Virus genome (UHGV): UHGV-0079566
From: a virus
Direction: 5' to 3' (one strand)
DNA length: 34,746 nt
Under the pieces are notes generated by a model. That model saw nothing but the letters and a program-made list of their open reading frames with translations. It had not been told where the DNA came from and searched no databases. Shown piece by piece: positions 8,144 through 28,637 of this stretch. Position 1 is the first letter of the stretch, and every line of letters begins with the position of its first letter. Both the position numbers and the translations under genes were made by a program.

Positions 8144-9022
8144 GTGAGTATGCATCAAGTTGTCAGCTTTTCAGGTGGACGAACATCGGCTTATCTCGTT
8201 CATCTGATGGAAGCAAAGCGAAAAGCTGGCGCTAGCGTCCATTTCATTTTTATGGATACCGGCTGTGAACATCCTCTGACGTATCGCTTTATTCGTGAGG
8301 TTGTGAAGTTCTGGAACGTACCGCTAACGGTGTTGCAGGTCGATATAAATCCAGAACTTGGGCAGCCAAATGGTTATACGGAATGGGAACCAAAGGATAT
8401 TCAGACGCGAATGCCGGTGCTTAAACCGTTTATGGACATGGTTAAAAAGTACGGTACGCCATACATCGGCGGCGCGTTCTGTACTGACAGGCTAAAACTC
8501 ACCCCTTTCACGAAATATTGCGATGACCATTTTGGGCGAGGGAATTACATCACATGGCTGGGTATTCGTGCGGACGAACACCGCAGGCTGAAACCGAAAC
8601 CGGGCGTCCGGTATCTTGCAGAGCTGTCAGATTTTGATAAGTCGGATGTTATCCGGTGGTGGCGAAAACAACCTTTTGATTTGCAAATCCCGGAGCACCT
8701 AGGGAACTGTGTTTTTTGCATCAAAAAGTCAACGCAAAAGCTGGGGCTTGCATGTAAAGACGAACCTGGTCTGATGCGGGTTTTTAATGAACTGGTTACA
8801 GGTAAACACGTCCGGGATGGTCACCGAAAGACAAATAAAGACGTTATGTACCGTGGTCATCTGAGCCTTGACGGGATTGCCAGAATGTATGCCGACAGCG
8901 ACTACAGAAATTTGTATCAGGCGATGGTGCAAACCAGGCGATTCGATACCGGCTCGTGTTCAGAGTCATGTGAAATCTGGGGTGATCAATTGGAGTTGAA
9001 ATTCGAAGAGGTGGTGGCATGA
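8144..9022 (+). CDS. PAPS-reductase-like (PP-loop ATP pyrophosphatase superfamily) protein (292 aa)
   Basis: PP-loop-like SFSGGRTSAY near the N-terminus; C-terminal cysteine pair (CSESC). Confidence 0.7.
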   Translation: MSMHQVVSFSGGRTSAYLVHLMEAKRKAGASVHFIFMDTGCEHPLTYRFIREVVKFWNVPLTVLQVDINPELGQPNGYTEWEPKDIQTRMPVLKPFMDMVKKYGTPYIGGAFCTDRLKLTPFTKYCDDHFGRGNYITWLGIRADEHRRLKPKPGVRYLAELSDFDKSDVIRWWRKQPFDLQIPEHLGNCVFCIKKSTQKLGLACKDEPGLMRVFNELVTGKHVRDGHRKTNKDVMYRGHLSLDGIARMYADSDYRNLYQAMVQTRRFDTGSCSESCEIWGDQLELKFEEVVA

Positions 9023-9723
9023 CAACCAAAATTAACTATCAGGCACTACGTGAGATAGCAAAACAGGCAACACAGGGCGAATGGGTCGCGTTTATTTCGA
9101 CGGGTACAGGTACGTATGCTGTGCATACGCCCGGTGATAAACGATGTGAAGATGTTATCAAATGGACCGGCTTTGATGGGCTGAAAAACGCAGAGAACAA
9201 CGCTCGTTATGTTGCCGCATTCAACCCAAAGGTTGCACTGGAGCTACTTGGTGAAATTAAGCGCCTGGAGGACACAAATATTGATGCTATGTGCCGAATA
9301 GCACCGCTTGAGACTAAGCTCGCGGCGCTGGTGGCAGAGAACGCCGGGCTGAAACACGCAATGGCCGTAACTCTTGAGCATGTGTCGGTCACGGATGCAG
9401 GGCAGGCCGGAGTTGCTGCAATGATTATCAACGATGCCCTGCACCACAGCGAAACTCCAGCTACCGATGCTTTTCTGGCTGAAATTCGTGCGGAAGCACG
9501 CAACGAGGGGATTAACTATACCGCCAGCCGTCTTGCTGCTGCGTTCAATCACGGATTTATCAATAAGTCTTTGCGTGAAGTTTTCGACGTTACACGCATG
9601 ATTTTGTCAGCGAAAGAAGAGTTGGCTAATGAAGCGCATCCGATTGATGGCCTGTCTGGTGAATATGCGGAGAAATCCCTTGAAGAATGGGCGGAACAGA
9701 TTCGCAAAGGAAGCAGCCAGTGA
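9019..9723 (+). CDS. Ead/Ea22-like prophage protein (234 aa)
   Basis: N-terminus INYQALREIAKQATQGEW is typical of Ea22-like proteins; ATGA overlap with the upstream gene. Confidence 0.65.
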   Translation: MTTKINYQALREIAKQATQGEWVAFISTGTGTYAVHTPGDKRCEDVIKWTGFDGLKNAENNARYVAAFNPKVALELLGEIKRLEDTNIDAMCRIAPLETKLAALVAENAGLKHAMAVTLEHVSVTDAGQAGVAAMIINDALHHSETPATDAFLAEIRAEARNEGINYTASRLAAAFNHGFINKSLREVFDVTRMILSAKEELANEAHPIDGLSGEYAEKSLEEWAEQIRKGSSQ

Positions 9724-10010
9724 ATATCGACACGACAATAACGATCGATACGCTCCTAAATACCGGTCTGGCACTTCTCGGTTGGCTTTACATCATGTCC
9801 CGCACATGGCGATGGCTGGGTTCCATTTTCCTAAAACAGTGGAAAAAACGGCGCAAACAGGAACTACGCCAGAAGGCATTAGAAGCGTTCTATGACGCAT
9901 TTGAGCTTAGCCGCATTGAACCAGGTACAACAGCCAGGATAGCGACAAAAGGCGACCTGATGATAGTGATGTTCCGACAGGAGAGAGCAGAGAAAGGGGA
10001 ATCAGCATGA
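9720..10010 (+). CDS. Small membrane protein (about 96 aa from GTG) with one hydrophobic helix (LLNTGLALLGWLYIM)
   Basis: In frame with ORF 9687-10010; AAGGAAG Shine-Dalgarno upstream of GTG 9720, which overlaps the upstream stop. Confidence 0.4.
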   Translation: MNIDTTITIDTLLNTGLALLGWLYIMSRTWRWLGSIFLKQWKKRRKQELRQKALEAFYDAFELSRIEPGTTARIATKGDLMIVMFRQERAEKGESA

Positions 10011-10741
10011 AATTTTCCAAATTTTCTGAGTTGGTGAATCGTATTTTGTCCAACAACCACAGCCATCGTCGCGATATGGATGTAACAATCGTTGTTCATT
10101 CGCCTGGCAGCATTGGTTCAACACCTTCAGTTGAGGTTCAGTCAATTCACGCTGGTTTTGATTGGGATTCCGGGAAAGTGCTTATTTTCCCATCACAGCC
10201 ACTGACCACGCTAACACCAGAACAGATTACTGATATCACTGATAGTGTGCGCAAAGGTCAGTCTTGGCACGCATATCAGGAATACAAGAAGCATCAAGAG
10301 CAGTTGGAAAAATTGTCGATTGAACTGGATGCCGCAAAACAGCGCATTGCAGAGCTGGAGGGTAATCGCACGGCGCTGGCAGTGGAGAATGAGCTGGCTC
10401 GTAAGGCAGTTCAGGCATTCTGCGATGTTGTTGGCGACAACACCGAGGTTATCGCTGAGGTGGTTGGGCGAGATGGCGTTCTGGTTATTTTGGAGGCCAT
10501 GAAGGCAACAGGAAATATGCCAGCCACCGATGCTTTCCTGGCTGAAGTGCGGGCGCAGGGCGTGGATGCTGCTATAGAAGCTGCAAAAAATCTGGTGGCC
10601 CAAGAATATGAGTATAAGGATTTCAAAGCGGCGCAGAGTGATTGCTGTATGCACCCTGGTTCAGACCTGGTAGGGAAGGTTGAAATGACTGAGTGGTTAG
10701 TTGACTTTGCTGCCCAGCTTCGCAAAGGAGGCAAACAGTGA
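10007..10741 (+). CDS. Ea22-like paralog (244 aa) sharing the C-terminal ATDAFLAE(V/I)RA segment with 9019-9723
   Basis: ORF track; ATGA overlap; central coiled-coil. Confidence 0.6.
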   Translation: MKFSKFSELVNRILSNNHSHRRDMDVTIVVHSPGSIGSTPSVEVQSIHAGFDWDSGKVLIFPSQPLTTLTPEQITDITDSVRKGQSWHAYQEYKKHQEQLEKLSIELDAAKQRIAELEGNRTALAVENELARKAVQAFCDVVGDNTEVIAEVVGRDGVLVILEAMKATGNMPATDAFLAEVRAQGVDAAIEAAKNLVAQEYEYKDFKAAQSDCCMHPGSDLVGKVEMTEWLVDFAAQLRKGGKQ

Positions 10742-11232
10742 GCAAGATTGACTATCAGGCACTGCGTGAGGCGGCAGAGAAGGCTACGAAAGGTAAGTGG
10801 GCTGTTGAATTCGACGATGAGATTTACTCCACTGACGGCATAAACCATGAGCAAATAGCTATGGTGTTCAGTGAAAACGAATCTCGTGATGCTGAATTCA
10901 TCGCCGCAGCCAATCCGGCTACCGTCTTGGCGCTTCTGGATGAACGGGAAAGAAACCTGCAATACATCAAAAGCCGCGATCAGGAGAACGAGGATATTGC
11001 GCTAACGGTAGGGAAGCTGCGCGTTGAGCTTGAAGCAGAAAAACAGCGGGCAAAAGTTCTATTTATGGAAAATGCTCGGCTTAAGTCAGGCATAGCCGGT
11101 CTGATACACCTCGGTATTCGATATGCAGATGTTGAGGTCATGAAAATTGCTGGAGATGCCCAGCTTTCTACCCCATGCACTGACAGCATCATAAACAGCA
11201 TTGCAACAGGCATTCGCATCAAAGGAGAGTGA
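10738..11232 (+). CDS. Ea22-like paralog (164 aa) sharing the N-terminal module (IDYQALREAAEKATKGKW); ends with TGIRIKGE
   Basis: ORF track; AGGAGG Shine-Dalgarno; GTG start overlapping the upstream stop. Confidence 0.6.
   Translation: MSKIDYQALREAAEKATKGKWAVEFDDEIYSTDGINHEQIAMVFSENESRDAEFIAAANPATVLALLDERERNLQYIKSRDQENEDIALTVGKLRVELEAEKQRAKVLFMENARLKSGIAGLIHLGIRYADVEVMKIAGDAQLSTPCTDSIINSIATGIRIKGE
11209..11232 (+). repeat. Copy 1 of a 24-bp direct repeat ggcattcgcatcaaaggagagtga (encodes the ...GIRIKGE* C-terminus and the next gene's Shine-Dalgarno)
   Basis: Exact repeat read at 11209-11232 and 11703-11726. Confidence 0.9.
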
Positions 11233-11234
11233 GA

Positions 11235-11726
11235 ATGCAAATTTCACCGGTTACTCTTCGTGTTGCGAAGGCGTTTATATCCAGACATCACCGACACAAT
11301 AAACCCCCGGTGGGGCATAAATTCAGCATTGGTCTGAGAAATGATGCCGGAGAATTGATAGGTGTGGCGACAGCCGGTAGACCTGTTGCACGACATTTGG
11401 ACGATGGATTAACGCTTGAAGTAAATCGCACATGTACCACAGGAGAACGCAACGCTAACAGCGCGCTTTATGGTGCTGTCTGGCGGGCAGCAAAGGCTAT
11501 GGGTTATCAACGTTGTATTACGTACACCCAGGCAGATGAATCAGGAGCATCTCTCCGCGCAGCTGGTTTTGTTCGTGTGAAAGAGCTTCCTCCAAGAAAA
11601 AGCTGGGCGGAATCAAGCGTCGCCCTGCGGAGTAAACGCGATCCGGTCGGAAACGGTGGTGTTCCTCGTGTGCTCTGGGAAATCAGGAGAATGAGTACCA
11701 CTGGCATTCGCATCAAAGGAGAGTGA
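11235..11726 (+). CDS. Hypothetical protein (163 aa); also ends in ...TGIRIKGE
   Basis: ORF track frame 11229-11726; ATG 11235 preceded by AAGGAGAG. Confidence 0.55.
   Translation: MQISPVTLRVAKAFISRHHRHNKPPVGHKFSIGLRNDAGELIGVATAGRPVARHLDDGLTLEVNRTCTTGERNANSALYGAVWRAAKAMGYQRCITYTQADESGASLRAAGFVRVKELPPRKSWAESSVALRSKRDPVGNGGVPRVLWEIRRMSTTGIRIKGE
11703..11726 (+). repeat. Copy 2 of the 24-bp direct repeat ggcattcgcatcaaaggagagtga
   Basis: Exact match to 11209-11232. Confidence 0.9.
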
Positions 11727-11727
11727 T

Positions 11728-11991
11728 ATGGCAACTTTGACAAAAAAAGAACAAGCATGGTTGAGCGAATTACAGGACGTTCTTGATCGCTGTCCATCAC
11801 CGAAAAAAATTGGTTTTTACACCATTGGCGATAAAAGCATTTACCTGTATGACCTGCGCCGCATGGATGAAATCATGGAGGCTCTTGATAATCGTTCGTC
11901 GATGGATTGGTGTGTTGCTGTTCATGATATGAATGCAGGGTTTGATGAAAAGATTTTGTTCCCCTCATCAGTTGAAAGCACTGCGGGTTAA
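11728..11991 (+). CDS. Hypothetical protein (87 aa)
   Basis: ORF track; ATG 2 nt after the upstream stop, using the Shine-Dalgarno inside the repeat. Confidence 0.5.
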   Translation: MATLTKKEQAWLSELQDVLDRCPSPKKIGFYTIGDKSIYLYDLRRMDEIMEALDNRSSMDWCVAVHDMNAGFDEKILFPSSVESTAG

Positions 11992-12001
11992 GGAGTAACA
12001 C

Positions 12002-12877
12002 ATGACCACTATTACCAAAGAACGTATTGAATTGTTCATTAAAAATCCGCTTGAAAACGGGCTTACCCGTGGTGAACAAATGGAACTGGCACGGATTGCG
12101 CTGGCATCGCTGGAAGCAGATCCAGTTAAACGAGTTAACTCAGATCAGATGCGCCGAGTCTGCTTAGAAGCTAATCGCCATTTAGATAAATATGACGCGA
12201 TGGCGAAAGAGGTAAATAAGTTGCTTGGACGCATCGCCCCGCCAGCGCCGGTAGTGCCGGAAGAAGCAACTCCGGAAAACGTAGAAATGCTCTCTGGCTA
12301 TGTTTCCACGTACAAATTAACCGATAGCGAGCGCGATATTGCTGCCGAAATATGGAACGCCTGCCGCACCGCCATGCTTCAGTCCGGAAACTTTCGGGAA
12401 AGCAAGAATTCGTCAACCAATAATTTTCGGGAAATCGCGGAAACGTCAACCAACTATCCGGTAATTCCTAGTGAGGTGTTGTCCGCAATCTTGAAGGTTG
12501 CCAAGATTCGTGCCGATTTCGATGATTTTGACGGTGACAGGCGAGGTATCGGTGATTGTCTGGATGAGGCTGAGCAAGAGCTTATCGTTACCATTAACAA
12601 ATATGCCAGTCAGTTGGCAGCAGAACCTATAGCGCCTAATGACGTTCGAGAGCAGACAGCCATTCCGCAAGTTCCGGTAACTCCGGATGGTTGGATAAGC
12701 TGTAGTGAGCGAATGCCCGCTCAAGATGATTGGATTTTAATTTATTCAAAGCACGGCGAGTATATGGCAGGACAGGTACAAGAGGAATACGTGGAGTTGA
12801 GCGACGGCACTTTATCGTGGTTAGGGAACGCCTTGTTCTGGATGCCTCTACCAGAACCGCCTCAGGAGGCAAAATGA
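12002..12877 (+). CDS. Hypothetical protein (291 aa) with a C-terminal DUF551-like segment (W...MP...W...W.PLPEPP)
   Basis: ORF track; C-terminal GWISCSERMPAQDDWILIY...LFWMPLPEPP resembles DUF551. Confidence 0.6.
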   Translation: MTTITKERIELFIKNPLENGLTRGEQMELARIALASLEADPVKRVNSDQMRRVCLEANRHLDKYDAMAKEVNKLLGRIAPPAPVVPEEATPENVEMLSGYVSTYKLTDSERDIAAEIWNACRTAMLQSGNFRESKNSSTNNFREIAETSTNYPVIPSEVLSAILKVAKIRADFDDFDGDRRGIGDCLDEAEQELIVTINKYASQLAAEPIAPNDVREQTAIPQVPVTPDGWISCSERMPAQDDWILIYSKHGEYMAGQVQEEYVELSDGTLSWLGNALFWMPLPEPPQEAK

Positions 12878-13134
12878 TGGATGTCAAAGAGAAGATTTTG
12901 CAGGTGATGCGTTCCCGGGCTGCCCTGCAAGATAAAGCTCTCGGCGGGGAATATCCATTCAGGATGGCAACCTGGAATCTGCGGTTGGCAATGGAGAAGG
13001 AATTTCCTGATGAAGAATGGCGTTCGGCAGATTTGCGCAAAATTCTTATGGAGATGGCTAAAGACGGAACAGTATCCAAAGATACCCATGCCAGCCGGAT
13101 TGGTCAGGCGGTATGGAGACTGGAGGTGAGATAA
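12874..13134 (+). CDS. Hypothetical protein (86 aa)
   Basis: AGGAGG Shine-Dalgarno; ATGA overlap with the upstream stop; in frame with ORF 12730-13134. Confidence 0.5.
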   Translation: MMDVKEKILQVMRSRAALQDKALGGEYPFRMATWNLRLAMEKEFPDEEWRSADLRKILMEMAKDGTVSKDTHASRIGQAVWRLEVR

Positions 13135-13241
13135 TGAGCTGGCCTGAAGCATTCGCAACGGTAGGAATTGTGATGGCGGCAGCACTGGGTTTGTATTCAA
13201 TTTGTCGCTGGTGGCAGGCTTGTTTCGGTTCTATTTGGTGA
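13134..13241 (+). CDS. Small hydrophobic peptide (35 aa, MSWPEAFATVGIVMAAALGLYSICRWWQACFGSIW)
   Basis: GGAGGTGAG Shine-Dalgarno; TAATG stop/start overlap; hand-translated. Confidence 0.35.
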   Translation: MSWPEAFATVGIVMAAALGLYSICRWWQACFGSIW

Positions 13242-13416
13242 CTACCGAGATGACTTCTTCCAACCAGAAGAAGTTGATGTGGTGCGAGAGGCATTAAACG
13301 AGTTAAGTGTTGATAACGATGATGCTCATGCGGAAATCATCCAAAAAATGGAACTGCTAACTCACTAAATTATCAATTATGGTGCTATCACCTACGACAC
13401 CGAGAGAAAATTTATA

Positions 13417-13539
13417 ATGTCAAAAGTAAATGTTTTGATTTTTTCAGCAATTGTTGGCTTTGGTTTTACTGCCGGAGTGCAGATTTATATTACGTGGGAA
13501 AAAATCATCAACTACGCATGGAGTTGTTTTATTAAGTGA
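13417..13539 (+). CDS. Small hydrophobic peptide (40 aa, MSKVNVLIFSAIVGFGFTAGVQIYITWEKIINYAWSCFIK)
   Basis: Hand-translated ORF in an AT-rich segment; purine-rich stretch upstream. Confidence 0.35.
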   Translation: MSKVNVLIFSAIVGFGFTAGVQIYITWEKIINYAWSCFIK

Positions 13540-13546
13540 GGTAGGT

Positions 13547-13840
13547 ATGTGGAGAGGTAATAGTCATGGCAAAAGCCAGATGATACTTACCGAATATCAG
13601 TTTGACCATAAAACCAATAAATCACGTTCAGTATATTTGCTTCGGCACAATAGCCGCGTAAGGAATACCGTGCTGGAGCAAAATCTGACTGTTGAAATGG
13701 ATAATTACGGGGGCTTCAAGCCAACAATTTCGCTTGATGATTTTCCTCGTGGTTTAAGCGAAAGAGAAGCAATGCTGAAATTAGCAGAATGGCTACAAAG
13801 ATTAAGCATTGCTATTGAAGATAACTGGTCTGAACCTTAA
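13547..13840 (+). CDS. Hypothetical protein (about 97 aa from ATG 13547)
   Basis: In frame with ORF 13451-13840; AGGTAGGT Shine-Dalgarno directly upstream. Confidence 0.45.
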   Translation: MWRGNSHGKSQMILTEYQFDHKTNKSRSVYLLRHNSRVRNTVLEQNLTVEMDNYGGFKPTISLDDFPRGLSEREAMLKLAEWLQRLSIAIEDNWSEP

Positions 13841-13846
13841 ATTTAT

Positions 13847-14221
13847 ATGATGACACTAAAACATTTTCTTGACCGCCCATTATGGGCGGCAGCCGCAGGC
13901 TATGACTTTAATTATATGGATTGCATGTCTTATACCGCCAATGCATACGACCATTCCTTCAGTCTGCTGTTTAATTCTTTAAGAATATTGCCGCAAACAG
14001 AAGTTGGAGAGCTTCATTTATGGCTATTGGGCTTTATCGCGGCTGGAGTTGGTATTGCTGTATGGCCTTTTATTTTCTGGTTGGTGGCTGTTGTAGTGTG
14101 GTTTAAGTGCAAGACGTACCGGAAAAAGTATTTCTTAGGTGATGGAATGACTGATATTGCCAAAATGAACATTGAAAAATGGACTAAGGAATGTGAAAAG
14201 AAATGGCGCAAAAAGAAATGA
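13847..14221 (+). CDS. Hypothetical membrane protein (124 aa; two adjacent hydrophobic helices, Lys-rich C-terminus)
   Basis: ORF track; hydrophobic stretch LWLLGFIAAGVGIAVWPFIFWLVAVVVWF. Confidence 0.5.
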   Translation: MMTLKHFLDRPLWAAAAGYDFNYMDCMSYTANAYDHSFSLLFNSLRILPQTEVGELHLWLLGFIAAGVGIAVWPFIFWLVAVVVWFKCKTYRKKYFLGDGMTDIAKMNIEKWTKECEKKWRKKK

Positions 14222-14853
14222 CCAGAATCACTGAAGAGCGCATATCAGAGATTATTTCCCGTATCGAAATGTATGGTCACGGTGCTGGATATACGGCAGA
14301 TGAAGTATTGGAAATAGCCCAGCAGATGCTGGCCTTGAGACAAAAAGAGCAACATGAAAGTAATACGTGTAGATTGAATTTTGAGCATTGGCTGGAACAG
14401 CAACGCGGGAAAATCGATGTGGACTGTGGTTGTGTGTCCACTGAAACATTCATGCACTGGCTGCGGGTAGCTTACGAGGCTGGCAACTATCCGGATATTC
14501 CGGATAGTTCGGTGCCAGCACCAGGAAAGGGCGTCACCGGTGAACGTATCCGAATTAAGCCGCATGTTTATCGCGAACTGGTTAACCGTCTCCACGATAC
14601 AGCGATCAAGTGTGCTGGCACCCAGCAATTACGAGAAAGAATTAGCCGTGTTTTGGGCGACGTTATTACACCAGATCATCATAAACAAGCCGAGAAAAGT
14701 GGCCTGGAAAGGTGTCGCCTTGAGGCGGCATTAAACATTAAGCCGGGGCATACGCTTGGCATTATTGATGCACTATTGGTTCATAAGATGGCCAGGGCTT
14801 TATTGCCGCTGGTGGCTGAAAAGCATGAGGTGGACCATGCCAACGAAAGCTGA
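14203..14853 (+). CDS. Hypothetical protein (216 aa; start could instead be ATG 14218)
   Basis: ORF track; protein-like composition. Confidence 0.55.
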   Translation: MAQKEMTRITEERISEIISRIEMYGHGAGYTADEVLEIAQQMLALRQKEQHESNTCRLNFEHWLEQQRGKIDVDCGCVSTETFMHWLRVAYEAGNYPDIPDSSVPAPGKGVTGERIRIKPHVYRELVNRLHDTAIKCAGTQQLRERISRVLGDVITPDHHKQAEKSGLERCRLEAALNIKPGHTLGIIDALLVHKMARALLPLVAEKHEVDHANES

Positions 14854-15121
14854 ATTACAGGTGCGCGTAGATGAGCTTGAAAAAGAGAACGCGAGCCTCA
14901 AAAAAATGCTGTCGCGGGCGGAAAGGGAATTATCAGGCAAATTATTGCCAGAAGAACTGCCACCAGCAGATATACCTGATCGAGTGTCCTGGTGGATGAA
15001 GTATTTCCGTGCACCGTGGGAGGCGTTTTGGTGCTACGACCATCGCAGATGGTGTGATGAACTTGATAGCAATTTTCCCTACTTTGCGGAAGGGAACACC
15101 TGCCCTCAATGCAGGGGATAG
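14837..15121 (+). CDS. Hypothetical protein (about 94 aa) with N-terminal coiled-coil and C-terminal Cys/His/Trp-rich tail (CPQC)
   Basis: In frame with ORF 14756-15121; GAGGTGGA Shine-Dalgarno upstream of ATG 14837. Confidence 0.45.
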   Translation: MPTKAELQVRVDELEKENASLKKMLSRAERELSGKLLPEELPPADIPDRVSWWMKYFRAPWEAFWCYDHRRWCDELDSNFPYFAEGNTCPQCRG

Positions 15122-15456
15122 CATTTGACGAAATCGATCACCCTATCCTGAACTTCAGAAAGAAGGTCTTTTTCACGCGCCAGGACGTCAGGATATTGAC
15201 GTTCTGGCCTTACCAGATGCCGGAGCTTCCCATTAAGCAGAATGGCCTCAGAAAACACTTTTACGCTGTGCTTTATCCCCTCTGTTTCACTTTTCAGCGT
15301 AAAAATAAAGCGCAATTGCTTATTAGCCTGATTCGGATTCAATACACGAATTTGCAGTTCGTCTATGCTGTTTCGCAATGGGATTGATGCCACCACACTG
15401 GTGCAGTCTCTGATTGTCTGAATTGAACGGCTAACATTGAGAACGTTATTGTGCAT
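15106..15456 (-). CDS. Hypothetical protein (116 aa) on the opposite strand, convergent with the upstream operon
   Basis: ORF track; protein-like sequence whereas the overlapping plus-strand ORF looks like noise; no convincing Shine-Dalgarno at the annotated ATG. Confidence 0.4.
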   Translation of the reverse strand: MHNNVLNVSRSIQTIRDCTSVVASIPLRNSIDELQIRVLNPNQANKQLRFIFTLKSETEGIKHSVKVFSEAILLNGKLRHLVRPERQYPDVLAREKDLLSEVQDRVIDFVKCYPLH

Positions 15457-15488
15457 GTGCCTGATCCACTAACTCCTGGAGGTTTCTT

Positions 15489-15740
15489 GTGTCAGATCGA
15501 AATATAGCAGCTAAAAGCCAGGAAGAGCGAGACAAGGTGAACGTAGACCTTGCCGCCAGCGGCGTTGCTTACAAAGAACGGCTGAATATACCTGTGATTG
15601 CAGAGCAGGTGGCCCGTGAGCAACCGGAAAACCTGCGCGCCTATTTCATGGAACGGCTACGGCACTACCGGCAGTTAAGCCTCCAGTTGCCAAAAGGGAG
15701 CGATCCGGTGTATCAGAACGAGGATGCACCAAAAAAATAA
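15489..15740 (+). CDS. Hypothetical protein (83 aa), GTG start
   Basis: GGAGG Shine-Dalgarno 6 nt upstream of GTG 15489. Confidence 0.5.
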
Positions 15741-15825
15741 CGGCAAGATGGGGGAGAAATGTGATTAGCCCCCAGCGTGGCGCGCCTACAAACCCCGCTT
15801 TCACAAACTATGCCTTTTCAATGTA

Positions 15826-15845
15826 TACTGTATGAATAAACAGTA
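15826..15845 (+). promoter_or_regulatory. LexA (SOS) box TACTGTATGAATAAACAGTA upstream of humD
   Basis: Perfect CTGT-N8-ACAG read in sequence, 20-40 nt upstream of the humD ATG. Confidence 0.75.
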
Positions 15846-15863
15846 TCATTGAGGTAAAACGCT

Positions 15864-16253
15864 ATGGGCTTCCCTTCTCCTGCGGCGGATTATGTTGAAA
15901 GCCGAATTTCTCTTGATCAGCAGATAATTAGACATCCTTCAGCGACCTACTTCATGCGGGCAGCTGATAGCCATCACCGTGAGGGAATATTGCAGGGAGC
16001 TTTGCTGGTGGTTGATTCCTCGCTTACTCCGGTTGATGGTTCTCTGCTTGTGTGCGCTATGGAGGGTGAATATCGCATAAAGAGATACAGGAAGTATCCG
16101 CGCCAGCACCTGGAGGACTTAAGCACCGGGAAGAAAGAGGCGTTACCAGTAGATGACGATGGATACACGGGCAGTAATGCTGTTTTTGGTGTGATCACTC
16201 ATGTCATCAATGATGCCCGAAGTGGGGAATTTGATGATTGTCCGGTTATTTAA
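15864..16253 (+). CDS. humD: HumD, UmuD-like SOS mutagenesis protein homologue (129 aa)
   Basis: Protein recognised as UmuD-like, placed directly upstream of phd-doc as in P1, with a LexA box and a GAGGT Shine-Dalgarno. Confidence 0.8.
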   Translation: MGFPSPAADYVESRISLDQQIIRHPSATYFMRAADSHHREGILQGALLVVDSSLTPVDGSLLVCAMEGEYRIKRYRKYPRQHLEDLSTGKKEALPVDDDGYTGSNAVFGVITHVINDARSGEFDDCPVI

Positions 16254-16288
16254 GCTGCAAAGTGCTGGTGCTTTATGCCTGTGAAGTT

Positions 16289-16318
16289 TATAATTGTGTA
16301 CACATAACGAGTACACGA
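16289..16318 (+). promoter_or_regulatory. phd-doc promoter/operator region: -10 TATAAT followed by palindrome TGTGTACACA and a GTACAC half-site
   Basis: Read in sequence immediately upstream of phd; Phd autorepression via palindromic sites is established for P1. Confidence 0.5.
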
Positions 16319-16325
16319 GGTGTTT

Positions 16326-16547
16326 ATGCAATCCATTAACTTCCGTACCGCGCGTGGCAACCTTTCTGAAGTGCTCAACAATGTTGAAGCCGGGGAAGAG
16401 GTTGAAATCACCCGCAGAGGCCGTGAGCCAGCAGTAATTGTCAGCAAGGCTACTTTCGAAGCCTACAAAAAAGCGGCGCTGGATGCTGAATTTGCATCCC
16501 TGTTTGACACCCTGGACTCCACCAACAAGGAACTGGTTAACCGATAA
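16326..16547 (+). CDS. phd: Phd antitoxin (73 aa)
   Basis: Protein [19 protein letters not shown]... recognised as P1 Phd; TAATG overlap with doc. Confidence 0.92.
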
Positions 16548-16927
16548 TGAGACATATATCACCGGAAGAACTTGTTGCGCTTCATGATGCGAATATAAGC
16601 CGCTACGGCGGCCTGCCGGGAATGTCTGATCCGGGTAGGGCAGAGGCCATTATCGGGAGAGTTCAGGCCAGAGTTGCCTACGAAGAGATCACCGACCTTT
16701 TCGAAGTCTCCGCCACCTACCTGGTGGCTACAGCGAGAGGGCATATATTCAATGATGCCAATAAGCGTACCGCGCTAAACAGTGCGCTGCTATTTCTACG
16801 CCGTAACGGGGTGCAGGTATTTGATTCACCTGAACTGGCAGACCTTACCGTAGGCGCTGCGACCGGAGAGATATCTGTATCTTCTGTCGCCGACACGTTA
16901 CGTAGATTGTATGGTTCCGCAGAGTAG
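16547..16927 (+). CDS. doc: Doc toxin, Fic-fold kinase (126 aa)
   Basis: Fic-type motif [10 protein letters not shown]; position and size match P1 Doc. Confidence 0.92.
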
Positions 16928-17111
16928 ATTAATGGCACGTAAATACAACAAATTGTCCCGTGAAGCGTTAAAGATGCTTCTTGATGGCGTGAGTCGCCGC
17001 GAGGTAAAGCAATACCTGGTTGGTAAGCAAATTGGTGCCAGGACCGCTATTGCTGTGTTATGCCGTCAGGAAATGGTTGTGCTTAAACAGAGAATGCCGG
17101 GCAGCAGATAA
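16911..17111 (+). CDS. Small protein downstream of doc (pdcA-like position); start may be ATG 16932
   Basis: ORF track; gene order doc-pdcA-pdcB-lpa recalled from P1. Confidence 0.4.
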
Positions 17112-17138
17112 AGCCCAATCAGTGATGAAAGGTGTGAT

Positions 17139-18182
17139 GTGAAAGCCGTAATTACTCCCTTTGTACAAAAAGAGCTTGGCGTCGCCACATTCAAAGTGGA
17201 TCAGGAAGTCAGAAAGCTGGTGGAGGCTGGCCGTAAATTTATTATGGAGCCGGTGCCGCGTGAGTTAATCGAGCACATGGACGACGGCCTCGTTGTTTCC
17301 GAGCAGACTATGGCAACAAATGAGGCGTTGCAGCCGTTTTTTAACAGCGATGAACTGTTTCGCCGTATTGGTGGAATTGACGCGCTGGTGGCGTGGTTGC
17401 GTAGGAAAGAGGGTCAATGCCAGGCCGCAGATCGTAGTTGGTGTGACAACCATATTGTCCACGCTGAACGAGACAATAGCGCGGTGTTGTTGTGCTGGCA
17501 TCACGATAACCATTACCGGATGCGTGGTTTTAATGAGCTGAAAGAAACGCTGCATAATAATCGCGTTAACTGGATACTGGATGTCGCCCGTCAGGAAATG
17601 GGGCTTTCAGATGGCCATGATTTAAGTATTCAGGAACTGTGCTGGTGGGCTTTCATGCGCAACATGATGCACCTGATGCCGGAAGAAGTTTGCCGTATAT
17701 CAATAAATAAGATGAAAGCCGCAACGCAGGATAGCGGACCTCTGAAAGAGGCGGATATTCGCCCGTATGACGATCGCGCTACAGCATATGTTCAGATGAT
17801 GGAAGAACGCGCCGCGCCGATGCGTGCAAAAGTATGCCCTGTGGATGTTGACTCCGACCCTGGCATGGCGCATTTCAAAATACCAAAACTTCAATCGCTA
17901 AAATTGCCCGAGTACATGGATTTTGTGGCTTCCCGTCCATGCTGTGGCTGTGGAGCTGCGGGAGCTGGCGCTCACATTACGCCTTATATCGTTCGTCATA
18001 GTCGATTATGCGCGCATGACATTTATGCTATTCCTCTGTGCCAGTCATGCCAGCGTGATATTGAGCGTGACCGCGATAATTGGGAGAAGACGCACGGTAG
18101 GCTGGCGATGCATCAACGATTGTTCTTTGATTACGCGCTTGGAGTCGGCGCTATCACAAGTCATTCGTCGAGCGTTAGATAA
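17139..18182 (+). CDS. Hypothetical protein (347 aa) in the pdcB-like position; C-terminal Cys-rich region (CCGC...C..C...C..C)
   Basis: ORF track; GTG start with AAAGGTG Shine-Dalgarno. Confidence 0.5.
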
Positions 18183-18183
18183 A

Positions 18184-18723: not shown

Positions 18724-18809
18724 TTGATTGCTTGCCCGTTCCGGGCCTTTTGACATGTGACTTTCGTTACCCTCGCGTCAAAAAGAGTTTTATACGAAAG
18801 GAAGCATAA

Positions 18810-25907: not shown

Positions 25908-26549
25908 ATGGATAAGAAAATATGCGTTGTTTCGATGAGCGTCGGCAAACCGGCGTCAATGACTGCGGCATGGATCAATAACGAGCTGATAATGGCTGAG
26001 CGGACCAGCTACCCTGAACGCCGCCGCGATATGGAACTCCAGCTGCTGCGCGAATTGCGAGAAAAAGAGGAAAAGGGTTTTATCGTGCTGGTGGAAGAGG
26101 AAAACAGCTTTATTACTGGTCGAGTTGGCCAGCGTGTAAGGTTGCGCGATCCCTTCATGAACGGCAGGCCGGTACTAATTGAGGCAATGCAGATTTATAA
26201 GGAGCTGGAACGCCAGAAAGCAATCAAGTTACCGCGCAAGGAATCCGGCAAATACATCCTCCACCAAAGCATCTTCGATTCCGAACACGACAAAAAAGGC
26301 GATGAATTTTTCAACATCAACTGGAGCGAAATAACGACAGAGCATGTTCTGACGTTACTATGTTGCTTTGCGACGGAATACAACAACGTTGCCAGCGCAG
26401 ACTACATCAGGGCAATGGCTGGAGAAGTTGAGGCACGCCAGGAACCATCGTTACTAAGCCCTCTGATTAACATAATTCGCGGAACCCAAACGCTGGCACA
26501 AAAACAGGTGCCTAAGGGAGTATTAACAGGAAAAGGAAATTATCTATAA
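25908..26549 (+). CDS. Hypothetical protein in the mat position (213 aa from ATG 25908; ORF is open from GTG 25761)
   Basis: ORF track frame; AGGGGG Shine-Dalgarno before ATG 25908; gene order cre-cra-ref-mat recalled from P1. Confidence 0.5.
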   Translation: MDKKICVVSMSVGKPASMTAAWINNELIMAERTSYPERRRDMELQLLRELREKEEKGFIVLVEEENSFITGRVGQRVRLRDPFMNGRPVLIEAMQIYKELERQKAIKLPRKESGKYILHQSIFDSEHDKKGDEFFNINWSEITTEHVLTLLCCFATEYNNVASADYIRAMAGEVEARQEPSLLSPLINIIRGTQTLAQKQVPKGVLTGKGNYL

Positions 26550-26605
26550 ACGTCAATGCATTAGGGTATACTTCTCCGTAGAACTATAAGTAAATGGAGT
26601 AAGTA

Positions 26606-27910
26606 ATGAGCGAGTATATAGAAATTGCCTATGCAGCAGCTACACATAGGCTGTGCTTTCTTACAGGCACTGGATTTTCAAAGGCTGTTTCTGATGATAA
26701 AGCCCCAAGTTGGCAATCTTTATTGGAGCAACTGTGCGGTTTATTGAAGGATGGTGACTCACTCAAAGAGGAATTATTTCCTGATGGAAAAGCAAAAGAC
26801 CTTAGCCTTGAAGAGGCTGCTCAGGTTATTGCACTAAAATTTATACTTTCGGGGAAAAATATTTACCAGGAGATTGAGAAAATCATAGCCTCAATCGAAC
26901 TTGATCCATCAATTGAATATATTCAAGACTTTTTCAAAGAAAACACATTTAAAGTAATTACGACAAATTATGACAAGTTAGCAGAAAAACTGGCTGGAGA
27001 GAATCGAACGTGTACAATCACCCCCGGCCTGCCAATTCCAAAATATAATTGTGAGGTTAAAGTCTACCATGTTCACGGCTCTATAGACTCCCCATCAGAT
27101 ATGGTTGTTACTAGCGAGGATTATTTCAGATTTATAAATGGTAATTCTTACTTTTCAAATAAACTAAGCACAGTTCTACATGAAAACACTATTGTTATCC
27201 TTGGCTATTCTCTAAGTGACGCGAACCTCAAGGCGATTATAAATGAATATAAGGTATTTTCACGGGACAACGTAATGTCCTCCAATATTTTCCTTATTTC
27301 CCGAGGGAAACTATTGCAACCTATTAAAGATTACTATTTTTCCTGCTTTGGGATTAGGGTTATAGATAAAACAGAGGTGTCTGATTTCTTTAGAAAACTT
27401 AACAAGAAAATTCCAGAAGCAAAAAAAATAAAAGACAAATTGAGGCACTCAATCAAATCGGTAATAAAAAACGGAAGAGAGTATAAAATAGAGTTCTTGA
27501 AGTTAGAGGATTCTTTTTATCATATCATTTCCTCCATTTCATCATCTGGATATAGCTGGAATGATGAAAAGGTATTAAATGTTTTTTGTGATATAATAGA
27601 TAAAAAAATAGATCTTACTAAAGAGTCTGGCGCATGGGAGCAGTATGAACACCTGGCAAAATGGCTTATTTATTTCGGTAGTTTATTTGAAGTAAAAGGA
27701 ACCAACTTTGAGAAAAAATACATACATGCGGTTGAACACTCAATGACTTATATGAATAAACCTTACGAAACAGGCTACTCATGGCGAGCATATCTAGCCT
27801 GGAAAACAAAATGGCCTTCACTCACAGCATCTAACCGCTCTCTTATTAAGAGTAAGATGGAAGAAATCCCGCTACAACAGATTCACGATATTATATCTAA
27901 GTTTATATAG
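26606..27910 (+). CDS. SIR2-like (ThsA/DSR-type sirtuin, NAD-binding) domain protein with an uncharacterised alpha-helical C-terminal half (434 aa); AT-rich foreign gene
   Basis: Motifs in order: CFLTGTGFSKA (glycine loop), ITTNYDKL (catalytic Asn), VYHVHGS (catalytic His), IVILGYSLSDANL. GGAG Shine-Dalgarno upstream. Markedly lower G+C than flanks by eye. Confidence 0.8.
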   Translation: MSEYIEIAYAAATHRLCFLTGTGFSKAVSDDKAPSWQSLLEQLCGLLKDGDSLKEELFPDGKAKDLSLEEAAQVIALKFILSGKNIYQEIEKIIASIELDPSIEYIQDFFKENTFKVITTNYDKLAEKLAGENRTCTITPGLPIPKYNCEVKVYHVHGSIDSPSDMVVTSEDYFRFINGNSYFSNKLSTVLHENTIVILGYSLSDANLKAIINEYKVFSRDNVMSSNIFLISRGKLLQPIKDYYFSCFGIRVIDKTEVSDFFRKLNKKIPEAKKIKDKLRHSIKSVIKNGREYKIEFLKLEDSFYHIISSISSSGYSWNDEKVLNVFCDIIDKKIDLTKESGAWEQYEHLAKWLIYFGSLFEVKGTNFEKKYIHAVEHSMTYMNKPYETGYSWRAYLAWKTKWPSLTASNRSLIKSKMEEIPLQQIHDIISKFI

Positions 27911-27918
27911 TATATTTA

Positions 27919-27947
27919 TCTCCGGCCTAATCTCCCTAGGCCGGAGA
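27919..27947. terminator. Hairpin (10-bp stem tctccggcct / aggccggaga, 9-nt loop) between the convergent SIR2-like gene and lxc
   Basis: Read directly; weak T/A tracts on both sides. Confidence 0.5.
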
Positions 27948-27951
27948 GTTC

Positions 27952-28200
27952 TTAATCAGCATTCAGGAGCAATGCGTTATCTATGATGATCTGCTCCCAT
28001 TCCTCGAATGCCCGATCGCGGACGCCCTGGGGAACGCTGTTAGTTTTGAAATCGACGACCGTCCGCCATTTTCCGTCCGGACGGTACATGCGCAGAGCTT
28101 TACTTCCCCCTTCCCTGCGCACCTCAACGTTATGCTTGTCAGCAAACTCTTGTAATGCTCGTAGCGTCCCATGCTTTACTGTGTAGTATCGCTTTTTCAA
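27952..28200 (-). CDS. lxc: Lxc/Bof-like C1 corepressor (82 codons, TTG start)
   Basis: 82-codon ORF with a TTG start overlapping the upstream stop (TTGA); I recall P1 bof/lxc as an 82-codon TTG-initiated gene in this neighbourhood. Confidence 0.55.
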   Translation of the reverse strand: MKKRYYTVKHGTLRALQEFADKHNVEVRREGGSKALRMYRPDGKWRTVVDFKTNSVPQGVRDRAFEEWEQIIIDNALLLNAD

Positions 28201-28637
28201 GTTTTCTCTCCAGCCTGTGCTAAGGCTTCAACTTCCAAATCGTAAGACTCAAACTCATAGTCCTGGTCGTCAACCTCTTCAGGCACTGGCAGTAAATGCC
28301 AGGCTGAGTATATCTGACCATTATCAAAACGCTCCTGGCTGTAGAGCGTCGCGGCTATGAGTGTCAGCGCCGGGCGGTCATAACGGTAAATTTTGCGAAC
28401 GTCACGGTCAACGAGACGACCGAAATTACCATAACCGCGCTCCAGTAATAATTTTTTAATTTCCGGCCAGTATGGGCCATAGCTGCGGTACAGGCGGGGA
28501 TTTTTCAGTAATCGCCCGCGTAGCCCTGACAGGAAGAAATCAACGTATTCGTCTTCTGTCTTTCCTAACAACGCTGTACGCAGTACCGCCTCAAGATATG
28601 TTTTATTCGGTTTTATTGTATCAGATAGTGTGGCCAT
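28197..28637 (-). CDS. Hypothetical protein (146 aa) immediately upstream of lxc (possibly ulx-like)
   Basis: ORF track; translationally coupled to lxc. Confidence 0.5.
   Translation of the reverse strand: MATLSDTIKPNKTYLEAVLRTALLGKTEDEYVDFFLSGLRGRLLKNPRLYRSYGPYWPEIKKLLLERGYGNFGRLVDRDVRKIYRYDRPALTLIAATLYSQERFDNGQIYSAWHLLPVPEEVDDQDYEFESYDLEVEALAQAGEKT

Follow-up and report, generated by a model that had tools for sequence, protein, structure and literature searches.

Probable exchangeable early accessory cassettes, one broken by a deletion, between pap and hot of a P1-like phage-plasmid

What is the role of a short AT-rich segment carrying small, partly hydrophobic open reading frames (ORFs) inside a P1-like phage-plasmid, and does it form a single functional island? 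The segment belongs to UHGV virus genome UHGV-0079566, of which one stretch of 34,746 nucleotides was analysed as a whole (here, the window). A sequence-only reading had described an AT-rich islet at about 13.25-14.2 kb, coding for a 40-aa hydrophobic peptide, a 97-aa soluble protein and a 124-aa protein with two hydrophobic helices and a poly-Lys tail, with a 35-aa hydrophobic peptide just upstream, and had suggested that superinfection-exclusion, holin-like or toxin components were encoded there. The four ORFs (13134-13241, 13417-13539, 13547-13840 and 13847-14221, all on the plus strand) are present as listed.

Location and base composition

The element is a P1-like phage-plasmid of the SJ46/RCS47 and IncY types: its DNA is matched best by SJ46 and RCS47 and by hundreds of plasmids of E. 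coli and Salmonella that are non-mobilizable, and NZ_CP030183, which is typed IncY, matches at full coverage. The segment is placed between pap and hot, where P1 has its pmgT-upfO genes. This interval is a hypervariable region of P1-like phage-plasmids, described as 'variable region 8' (PMC9603915) and also named 'RD-5' (PMC6906374), and CRISPRi scores pap, pmgT-V and upfN-O of P1 as nonessential (PMC10695390). Sequence comparison found the islet to be absent from P1, P7 and D6, with none of its four ORFs in P1; when 5426 genomes were scanned, it was present in 309 complete E. coli genomes as against 652 carrying the lpa-pacA core segment (about 47%). Thus, the islet is accessory, and it is not a core component conserved in all P1-like genomes. 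Parts of the segment are exchanged with lambdoid and N15-like phages. The element already carries phd-doc further downstream.

The G+C content of positions 13250-14221 is 38.8%, compared with a mean of 48.1% for the window; among all windows of the same size (972 bp; mean 0.481, SD 0.035) only 2.7% are as low, and the sole stretch of lower G+C lies at 26.1-28.4 kb. A SIR2-domain gene is found in another AT-rich segment of the same window. Third codon positions follow the same trend, with GC3 values of 0.34, 0.36 and 0.42 for the 40-aa ORF, the 97-aa gene and the 124-aa gene, respectively, and of 0.47-0.53 for the flanking genes. The composition shift proposed from the letters alone is thus confirmed by calculation, with the right edge displaced to about 14400, inside the N-terminal part of the following gene. 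An amino-acid bias typical of membrane proteins was rejected as the source of the AT-richness, because GC3 is low, the gene of the soluble 97-aa protein is equally AT-rich and the phiKO2 homologue of this gene has a normal G+C content (0.50, compared with 0.40 here). Filling of the pap-hot slot with early genes of lambdoid and N15 type would explain the anomaly.

The AT-rich segment very probably consists of two adjacent and independently exchangeable accessory cassettes, forming a mosaic rather than one functional island. The best explanation overall, which we regard as reasonably probable, is that two swappable early accessory cassettes occupy the pap-hot interval of this phage-plasmid, one of them broken by a deletion. 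The first, cassette A, would be composed of a 27-aa hydrophobic ORF, the gene of a 77-aa acidic protein and a 40-codon hydrophobic ORF; the second, cassette B, would be formed by the gene of the 97-aa soluble protein followed by that of the 124-aa membrane protein. Across 80 IMG/VR loci the 77-aa gene is almost always accompanied by the 40-codon ORF, the exceptions being three loci that have this ORF but no full-length copy of the gene; in many relatives an ASCH gene can replace both. The 27-aa ORF follows an eaa or a DUF551 gene, while pTB423 carries the 97-aa gene without the 124-aa gene. Natural absence and replacement imply that the cassettes are dispensable.

The two probable cassettes

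Comparison with NZ_CP030183 revealed that the window has lost 85 bp between two GCTGGTGG octamers, one copy of this Chi sequence being retained at the junction (13207..13214, plus strand). The deletion joins the 27-aa ORF (MSWPEAFATVGIVMAAALGLYSICRWW, then stop) to eight out-of-frame codons and truncates the 77-aa gene. As a consequence, the 35-aa hydrophobic peptide of the sequence-only reading has no native gene: alignment to a related locus (L001) resolves the ORF at 13134..13241 (plus strand) into the native 27-aa ORF and the eight added codons, and the 27-aa form is found in 46 of the 47 fetched loci that carry the ORF, the remaining one being this window. The 27-aa ORF has GGAGGTG upstream of its ATG, and its start codon shares bases with the upstream stop codon (TAATG or ATGA); it was assigned to no family of PHROG or Pfam.

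The second victim of the deletion is a pseudogene at 13203..13368 (plus strand), recognized by profile match and alignment as the gene of the 77-aa acidic protein (phrog_3876, WP_000517421). Just the last 29 codons are still in frame (13279-13368), corresponding to positions 49-77 of the 77 in phrog_3876 (E 6e-15). The gene is intact in all 58 fetched loci with a full-length copy, the 85-bp deletion occurs in none of the fetched loci, and in relatives the intact gene shows a pN/pS of 0.02, indicating strong purifying selection. Judged by its sequence, the 77-aa gene is dead in this window; the deletion between the two Chi octamers has inactivated it and lengthened the first ORF to 35 codons, so damaging cassette A.

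The third member of cassette A, the 40-codon ORF at 13417..13539 (plus strand), is a candidate gene with one predicted membrane helix, matching phrog_5525 over its full length (E 1e-24). The hydrophobic 40-aa ORF of the sequence-only reading is present, whereas its coding status is not supported by a pN/pS of 0.47 (P=0.19). It is quite conceivable, if somewhat less probable than the converse, that this ORF is no gene at all, that 13369-13546 is a noncoding spacer and that the functional genes of the segment in this window are limited to those of the 97-aa and 124-aa proteins. Besides the non-significant pN/pS, polymorphic sites are evenly spread over the codon positions (4/6/6), the Shine-Dalgarno sequence is weak and distant, no relative below 88% identity was found among 5.8 billion clusters, 4.6% of shuffles of the 178-nt spacer give a 40-codon ORF and PGAP leaves it unannotated. 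However, the ORF is intact, with ATG and stop, in 59 of 62 loci, its changes are conservative (A/V, T/S) and retain the hydrophobic helix, and it is called by some phage annotators, as reflected by phrog_5525. There is a possibility that the 27-aa and 40-aa ORFs encode true phage micro-membrane proteins.

Cassette B opens with the gene of the 97-aa protein (13547..13840, plus strand), which belongs to the phiKO2 Gp43, N15 gp44-45 and mEp235 gp51 family and matches phrog_1258 over its full length (E 1e-49). It has GAGGT 6 nt ahead of the ATG and is under purifying selection (pN/pS 0.23, P=5e-4). The product was rightly described as soluble: it has no hydrophobic segment, its highest 19-residue Kyte-Doolittle mean being 0.21, and it is modelled as a four-strand sheet with a C-terminal helix (pLDDT 79). 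Identity over the full length is 67% with phiKO2 Gp43 and 55% with N15 gp44-45, which share its length and early-operon setting and are likewise uncharacterised; the phiKO2 gene differs in following a Dam methylase gene and in its normal G+C content. In mEp235 and SPN9CC the related gene lies between ninF and HNH/rusA genes.

The 124-aa protein (13847..14221, plus strand) is a predicted membrane-anchored protein that matches phrog_2638 over its full length (E 3e-63); this family is small, since 1.84 billion proteins include only 38 of its representatives at 50% identity. The gene is under purifying selection (pN/pS 0.27, P=2e-5). A conserved N-terminal domain (KHFxDxPxWAAAAGYDFNxxDC) is followed by a 31-aa hydrophobic block with a central W-P and by a Lys-rich C-terminal helix. 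The sequence-only reading had assigned to this protein two adjacent helices and a poly-Lys tail; the latter is present, as the chain ends in KKWRKKK with 14 Lys/Arg in the last 38 residues, while the former are not supported at the level of the family. Residues 56-86 form one uninterrupted block of 31 uncharged residues with no dip in hydropathy, and AlphaFold predicts a single helix at 55-97, although with low confidence (pLDDT 63.6). In 32 members of the family the block spans 20-34 residues (median 27) and has a Pro near its centre, and the mean net charge of the flanking sequence is -1.9 towards the N-terminus and +3.9 towards the C-terminus. Sequence and model suggest that one kinked membrane helix fits the protein better than two; a tight or re-entrant hairpin could also account for the block of 31-34 aa in the close subfamily. 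The predicted topology leans slightly towards a single-pass protein with its N-terminus outside, in which case export of the 55-aa N-terminal domain without a signal peptide seems plausible from the sequence. Sequence-profile searches of the PDB with the 97-aa and 124-aa families gave no match.

A locus search with a 12-sequence alignment of the 124-aa family returned mostly near-identical P1-like loci from the viral collection and six loci from the genome collection. In N15-like phages (L004, L005, L099) the relatives are located after Q, RdgC and exonuclease genes and before Dam; a lambdoid relative follows O and P (L007), and another is near xis and int (L090). Two further relatives are in nin-like regions (L092, L093), according to our own reading of un-annotated ORFs as NinG-like, NinB-like, phosphatase, RusA-like and Q-like. 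The gene adjoins or overlaps the genes on either side in all eight other phage contexts. Altogether, relatives of both cassette B proteins are found in nin, exo-xis-like and N15-type early operons, and never beside lysis or immunity genes.

The arrangement of the two genes could be taken to indicate an obligate two-component system, made of a soluble sensor or adaptor and a membrane effector: the 124-aa gene starts 6 nt after the 97-aa gene and lacks its own Shine-Dalgarno sequence, and 267 of 313 E. coli records contain both genes. However, the 124-aa gene stands alone in N15-like and lambdoid contexts, the 97-aa gene stands alone in phiKO2, N15, mEp235, SPN9CC and pTB423, and Proteus phages that have both carry them kilobases apart, making an obligate partnership improbable. 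In the preferred explanation of two accessory cassettes, the 97-aa protein would act separately, as a small binding protein operating through its highly conserved C-terminal helix.

Operon setting and timing of expression

The islet is part of a predicted one-directional, gene-dense early accessory operon of about 7.6 kb (7562..15121, plus strand), defined from the ORF map and gene families. The operon is headed by a C1 repressor operator (7367..7383, plus strand), having one mismatch to ATTGCTCTAATAAATTT and equivalent to P1 Op88/OpmgT with its PpmgT promoters; indeed, positions 7340-7570 match at 99% identity the stretch of P1 in which OpmgT, P1pmgT and P2pmgT are annotated. The operon includes a PAPS-reductase-like gene, three Ead/Ea22-like genes, DUF4752, a Mom-like fragment, DUF551, eaa, the islet and PmgT/U-like genes. 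On its left the islet is flanked by an 86-aa eaa-type gene (12874..13134, plus strand; phrog_2814), of normal G+C content and common to Stx phages. On the right, a 216-aa gene (14203..14853, plus strand) shares its first 19 nt with the end of the 124-aa gene; it lies in the AT-rich tract with its N-terminal part, up to about 14400, and its C-terminal part is PmgT/PmgU-like and common to P1. Both cassettes would thus be internal to an operon controlled from the Op88/PpmgT-like region.

An operator scan found no further C1 operator within 7384-18183. In a consensus scan of the operon promoter-like sites were no commoner than in shuffled sequence, and none was found in the islet or ahead of it, though a weak promoter could escape such a scan. 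There is no convincing plus-strand terminator, only weak terminator-like sites being found. A late, Lpa-dependent promoter for the islet was considered and rejected, since no Lpa late-promoter box with a -10 occurs near it. On the basis of these consensus scans and by analogy with P1, the islet is probably not expressed in the lysogen but transcribed early once the element has been induced or has infected a cell, even if a weak internal promoter could yield some lysogen expression. The genes lie in the middle of an operon, behind a C1 operator, and no promoter-like site serves them separately; this speaks against lysogen expression, and in turn against classical prophage exclusion, which requires it.

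Probable accessory role and its alternatives

Exclusion, lysis and toxicity, the functions put forward by the sequence-only reading, found no backing in family searches or in gene context, which is that of an early operon with no lysis neighbours. At family thresholds, no Pfam or NCBIfam match was obtained for the islet proteins or for 32 members of the 124-aa family. Significant PHROG matches were limited to families of unknown function, none of them holin, exclusion or toxin, and all 32 members matched phrog_2638 only, save for two single-member matches elsewhere. No PADLOC defence model was matched by the islet proteins or by these 32 members. A literature search by protein accessions and PHROG ids found no papers, and a preprint on a screen of phage accessory genes (10.1101/2023.04.06.535777) contains no P1-like or N15 entries that match the islet genes.

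Superinfection exclusion or defence expressed from the prophage, like that of P22 SieA, HK97 gp15 and P1 Sim, would agree with the prediction of membrane proteins in a segment that is AT-rich and patchy in its distribution, and with the temperate nature of the element, which in the SIR2-domain gene has defence-type cargo elsewhere in the window. Against this reading, the genes matched no exclusion family and no PADLOC model, they are located mid-operon downstream of the C1 operator and lack individual promoter-like sites and, in the eight other contexts, early lytic genes adjoin or overlap the 124-aa gene so closely that a separate promoter would have no space; we therefore consider prophage-expressed exclusion unlikely, while an exclusion-type activity may be exerted during lytic growth. 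A role of the 124-aa protein or of the small hydrophobic ORFs as holin, antiholin or lysis timer appears very unlikely: small size, a hydrophobic helix (56-86) and a charged C-terminus are shared with holins but are not specific to them, no holin family was matched in Pfam, PHROGs or NCBIfam, and the islet genes belong to an early operon, with no endolysin or spanin gene beside them and no late promoter box upstream. Moreover, mEp235 and SPN9CC have a separate annotated lysis cassette downstream of Q, and L093 has separate holin- and lysozyme-like ORFs, by our own reading of the translations. Least probable of all is a small membrane toxin of a type I toxin-antitoxin or addiction system, encoded by the 40-aa or the 27/35-aa ORF: the short single-helix hydrophobic ORFs, the AT-rich DNA, the plasmid prophage and one weak opposite-strand promoter-like site (13608-13580), pointing across the 40-codon ORF, could be read in this way, but this site, the only one on that strand, is at chance level (6 promoter-like sites found, 8.2 expected), no toxin family was matched, no antitoxin partner was found beside the islet ORFs, Rfam detected no antisense or antitoxin RNA in 12800-14500 at gathering thresholds or even at E<=1, phd-doc is already available downstream, and the cassette is dispensable, the ASCH gene taking its place in many relatives.

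The 97-aa and 124-aa genes are most likely, from sequence and context, dispensable accessory genes acting early in lytic growth. Their products probably belong to a common stock of small and dispensable delayed-early functions, carried by temperate phages of Enterobacterales in operons of the nin, exo-xis-like and N15 Q-dependent kinds. The 124-aa protein would reside in the inner membrane through a single kinked helix, with the acidic N-terminal domain facing outward and the Lys-rich tail in the cytoplasm, and it may act on the host envelope during lytic growth, contributing to host takeover, blocking the entry of competitors or countering a membrane-based defence; such an envelope-directed role is proposed only tentatively. 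More speculative still, and improbable at present, is the idea that phrog_2638 represents an unrecognised class of early single-pass inner-membrane effectors of temperate Enterobacterales phages, whose probably periplasmic N-terminal domain targets an envelope process; if true, candidate targets would include the DNA-entry route of competing phages, the division machinery and a membrane-acting abortive-infection effector. T4 Imm and Sp and SPO1 gp56 are small inner-membrane proteins that are made early in lytic growth and act on the envelope. The 124-aa protein resembles them in concept only, Pfam and PHROG scans having found no sequence or profile similarity to these types.

Clinical and farm isolates of E. 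coli and Salmonella commonly harbour P1-like phage-plasmids, which carry resistance genes and whose variable regions are the sites where new cargo enters. The finding that the pap-hot slot holds lambdoid and N15-type early genes, under likely C1 control, is an ordinary one and would not surprise a phage genomicist; it corrects one artefactual "gene" and narrows the small membrane proteins to probable early lytic accessory factors, as opposed to holins, toxins or exclusion proteins made in the lysogen. Screens of host takeover and counter-defence could take in the 124-aa and 97-aa families at little cost.

A close parallel is offered by the nin and exo-xis/ea genes of lambdoid and P22-like phages (ninA-ninZ, ea22, eaa, DUF551), which, like those of the islet, are small, packed, often overlapping and expressed early under repressor control, as well as mosaic, polymorphic in presence or absence and mostly without known function. 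The operon that contains the islet itself holds Ead/Ea22, eaa and DUF551 genes. However, the lambdoid genes are under N/Q antitermination, whereas those of the islet would be under a P1-type C1 repressor, and the 97-aa and 124-aa families match none of the named nin genes. The P1 genes pmgT-pmgU-pmgV-upfM/N/O share with the islet the slot, the operator, the promoter and the downstream PmgT/U-like C-terminal sequence; they differ in that the islet content is of lambdoid/N15 type and 9-10 points lower in G+C.

The slot and the composition of the islet

The AT-rich islet at 13250–14221, together with the ORF just upstream of it, has an ordinary explanation: it is a mosaic of early accessory cassettes, one of them freshly inactivated, in a slot already documented as hypervariable. 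The analysis provides corrections and context and no new kind of system; its modest upside is an uncharacterised family of 124-aa membrane proteins. Database matches identify the window as a P1-like phage-plasmid, the region being 95–99% identical to Salmonella phage SJ46, Escherichia phage RCS47, vB_EcoM-813R1 and several hundred non-mobilizable E. coli and Salmonella plasmids, among which NZ_CP030183, typed IncY, is a full-coverage match; P1, P7 and D6 match the far right end alone (the PmgT/U-like part). In annotated relatives the islet position has pap (3′-phosphatase) on one side and hot/humD/phd-doc on the other, and the same slot in P1 holds pmgT-pmgU-pmgV-upfM/N/O. This slot has been described as “region 8” among eight variable regions of P1-like elements (PMC9603915) and as the hypervariable “RD-5, between pap and lxr” (PMC6906374), and its P1 genes were nonessential in a CRISPRi screen (PMC10695390).

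The four ORFs named in the sequence-only reading are all present at the coordinates given there, and the finding that would have refuted that reading, a place in the core of all P1-like genomes, was not made. The islet is accessory: it was found in 309 of 5426 complete E. coli genomes (plasmid-borne in 314 of 318 places) and the lpa-pacA core segment in 652, so that about 47% of P1-like elements have some part of it. A sliding profile displays a G+C trough of 0.36–0.41 from about 13.2 to 14.4 kb, with flanks at 0.47–0.53; the AT-rich shift that the sequence-only reading placed at about 13.25 to 14.2 kb was confirmed by calculation, since 13250–14221 has a G+C content of 0.388, whereas all 972-bp windows in the 34,746-bp sequence average 0.481 (SD 0.035), and just 2.7% of them are as low. 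This is not a mere by-product of hydrophobic residue content, because GC3 is shifted as well (0.34, 0.36 and 0.42 in the 40-, 97- and 124-codon ORFs; 0.47–0.53 in neighbour genes). Since G+C is ordinary (0.50) in the homologue of the 97-aa gene from phiKO2, and homologues of the 124-aa gene are 2–9 points lower than their own loci, the pronounced AT-richness of the P1-like copies looks like the mark of a donor lineage. The sole region of the window below the islet in G+C lies at 26.1–28.4 kb (26134–28400; 0.335 in 972-bp windows), where an ORF at 26606–27910 (+) has a 434-aa product containing a SIR2_2 domain (PF13289, E 1.6e-23) and is probably a gene for anti-phage defence aboard the phage-plasmid.

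A disrupted gene and two small ORFs

Aligned with plasmid NZ_CP030183, the window proves to have lost 85 bp between two GCTGGTGG octamers in direct orientation. In the intact arrangement, a 77-aa gene (WP_000517421, phrog_3876) comes after a hydrophobic ORF of 27 aa (MSWPEAFATVGIVMAAALGLYSICRWW*); the deletion joins the latter to eight out-of-frame codons, so the 35-aa hydrophobic peptide previously proposed at 13134–13241 does exist as an ORF, but is a chimera. Of the 77-aa gene, intact at 4521–4754 of the relative locus L001 and present as a remnant at 13203–13368 of the window, only the C-terminal 29 codons are readable (13279–13368, phrog_3876 positions 49–77). The gene is intact, and the deletion absent, at each of the 58 fetched loci that carry it in full length; plasmid pMB5646_3, 100% identical to the window over 13380–14225, also has it intact, and its pN/pS of 0.02 in relatives indicates very strong purifying selection; on these comparisons, the left part of the islet is a fresh pseudogene. 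The 34.7 kb contain 35 copies of the GCTGGTGG (Chi) octamer, where shuffles lead one to expect 0.8, and one copy is at the deletion junction (13207–13214); P1 is known to be dense in Chi sites. The 77-aa protein is very acidic (18 Asp/Glu versus 6 Lys/Arg), a composition that makes it a candidate DNA-mimic or anti-restriction-type protein.

The native 27-aa ORF may well be translated: it has a GGAGGTG Shine-Dalgarno sequence 5′ of its start, which overlaps the preceding stop (TAATG or ATGA) whichever of two genes lies upstream, and its presence is independent of the other islet ORFs. The case for coding is weak for the 40-codon ORF (13417–13539), which would encode one hydrophobic helix and has a PHROG of its own, phrog_5525. 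Its pN/pS of 0.47 is not significant (P=0.19), its polymorphic sites are spread 4/6/6 over the three codon positions, neither a good Shine-Dalgarno sequence nor relatives at less than 88% identity were found, PGAP leaves it unannotated, and shuffling the 178-nt spacer produces a closed 40-codon ORF in 4.6% of cases. Across 80 IMG/VR loci and several plasmids, this ORF and the 77-aa gene co-occur nearly always, the ORF being found without a full-length 77-aa gene in three loci; an ASCH gene can stand in place of both, for example in RCS47.

The 97-aa and 124-aa genes

These two genes are mostly found together in the same loci and plasmids, and both are present in 267 of 313 E. coli records; in pTB423, the 97-aa gene is followed by a different small ORF. 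The 97-aa gene starts exactly at 13547 (13547–13840) and encodes a soluble protein for which AlphaFold (pLDDT 79) predicts four antiparallel strands plus a long helix at the C-terminus, the latter being its most conserved stretch (DFPxGLSxREaMLKLAdWLhRLxxAIEDNW). Its relatives form 128 clusters, in prophages of Klebsiella, Citrobacter, Salmonella, Erwinia and others, and include phiKO2 Gp43 and N15 gp44/45; in mEp235 (gp51) and the P22-like SPN9CC the gene lies between ninF and the HNH/rusA genes, that is, in the nin region. In the P1-like population both genes are under purifying selection (pN/pS 0.23, P=5e-4, for the 97-aa gene; 0.27, P=2e-5, for the 124-aa gene).

The 124-aa protein (13847–14221) comprises a conserved N-terminal part (KHFxDxPxWAAAAGYDFNxxDC), one continuous block of uncharged residues at 56–86, whose central Trp-Pro is invariant in close relatives, and a Lys-rich C-terminal helix (ECEKKWRKKK). 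It had been read as two adjacent hydrophobic helices with a poly-Lys tail: the Lys-rich C-terminus stands, but the block is unbroken, and across 32 family members it spans 20–34 residues (median 27, with a central Pro in all), so that two membrane helices are impossible for members whose block of 20–22 residues is too short. Three features favour one kinked transmembrane helix and a cytoplasmic C-terminus: this length, the charge asymmetry around the block (mean net charge −1.9 N-terminal and +3.9 C-terminal to it) and the low-confidence AlphaFold model (pLDDT 63.6), which has one helix over 55–97. A tight or re-entrant hairpin is possible in the close subfamily with blocks of 31–34 residues.

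The 124-aa family is small: it forms 16 clusters at 90% identity, a set of 1.84 billion proteins contains 38 representatives of it at 50% identity, and contigs sampled at one genome per species yielded only six loci (Escherichia, Pseudocitrobacter (two), Xenorhabdus (two), Dryocola). Divergent members lie, in N15-like phages (L004, L005 and Yersinia phage P840), 3′ of Q, RdgC and an exonuclease and 5′ of Dam; elsewhere they lie downstream of O and P, replication genes of lambdoid type (L007), adjacent to an exonuclease, xis and int (L090), or, where we read un-annotated ORFs as nin regions, upstream of NinG and Q or with a NinI-like phosphatase as neighbour (L092, L093). In all of these contexts the gene abuts or overlaps its neighbours, and the 97-aa gene never adjoins it. 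These comparisons show both genes to be real and conserved, accessory, mobile among three architectural types of temperate phage, and always placed in early operons.

The ECEKKWR-coding 3′ end of the 124-aa gene overlaps the start of the downstream gene in four contexts (14203–14221 in the window, 2991–3021 in L007, 5357–5375 in L090 and L091). There the downstream product has an N-terminus of the TITKE type, as is usual for Ead/Ea22 and DUF551 proteins: MTRITEE in the window and MTTITKE or MTTPITKE in L007 and L090, with L091 a less clear case. The overlap may represent a recombination joint between modules. One database homologue (P0006) is frameshifted inside the hydrophobic block, with the frame restored afterwards, which is a sequencing error or a decaying copy. 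Proteus phages VB_PmiS-Isfahan, 2207-N35, RS10pmA and PM-CJR encode distant relatives of both proteins (31–38% identity; hits H119–H123 and H160–H164), kilobases apart in the same phages, some being annotated, apparently wrongly, as “ribonucleotide reductase large subunit” or “portal protein”.

Early operon position and possible roles

A C1 operator with one mismatch is located at 7367–7383, immediately 3′ of pap, and the operator scan found no further such site between it and 18184; the segment 7340–7570 is 99% identical to that annotated in P1 as OpmgT (Op88) with promoters P1pmgT and P2pmgT. From 7562 to 15121 the + strand is packed with ORFs that abut or overlap, the other genes being of the “ea” type of lambdoid phages (PAPS-reductase-like, three Ead/Ea22-like, DUF4752, a Mom-like fragment, DUF551, eaa). 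Consensus scans of this region gave promoter-like sites no commoner than in shuffled sequence and only weak + strand terminator-like sites upstream of about 14.7–15.0 kb; no Lpa late-promoter box with a −10 was found near the islet by a scan that recovers the known LPpac box at 18755. The islet would be transcribed as an interior part of a C1-repressed early operon. In the operon leader, close 3′ of the operator, 7466–7552 (+) holds a 28-aa hydrophobic ORF (MNTAFKIIMAAIYFWLFSITFGGIVAHG), nearly identical in P1 (one base changed near the 3′ end), where no CDS is annotated from pap to pmgT. A 10-bp G+C-rich hairpin directly past the PpmgT promoters (7416–7438) is kept in P1; taken on the − strand, with its T-run, it looks like a strong intrinsic terminator, and on the + strand it would fall at the 5′ end of the operon transcript.

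The islet proteins had no significant match to Pfam or NCBIfam at each family's own threshold or to solved structures, and none at all to PADLOC models; their four PHROG families have no assigned function and fold searches were uninformative. The islet genes would be silent in the lysogen and expressed early once C1 is inactivated; the 124-aa protein may then insert in the inner membrane and act on the host envelope during lytic growth, for takeover, for blocking competing entry or for countering membrane-based defence, while the 97-aa protein would act on its own as a small binding protein via its conserved helix. We regard the envelope-directed role as tentative and rather doubtful, and hold the architectural and regulatory description with much more confidence. 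The classes first suggested for these small proteins fit less well. Exclusion genes expressed from the prophage are disfavoured by the operator-controlled position, for which the scans gave no promoter of its own, and by the lack of a family match; a holin, by the early-operon position, the absence of lysis-gene neighbours and the separate lysis cassettes of phages with relatives. A type I toxin is likewise disfavoured, as no antisense RNA family or antitoxin was found and the cassette is freely replaced.

Elsewhere in the same early operon, the PAPS-reductase-like gene (8144–9022, +; phrog_424/33262) and the Mom-like DNA-modification fragment (11229–11726, +), which matches only positions 20–159 of a 245-position profile, hint at partly decayed DNA-modification or anti-restriction cargo.
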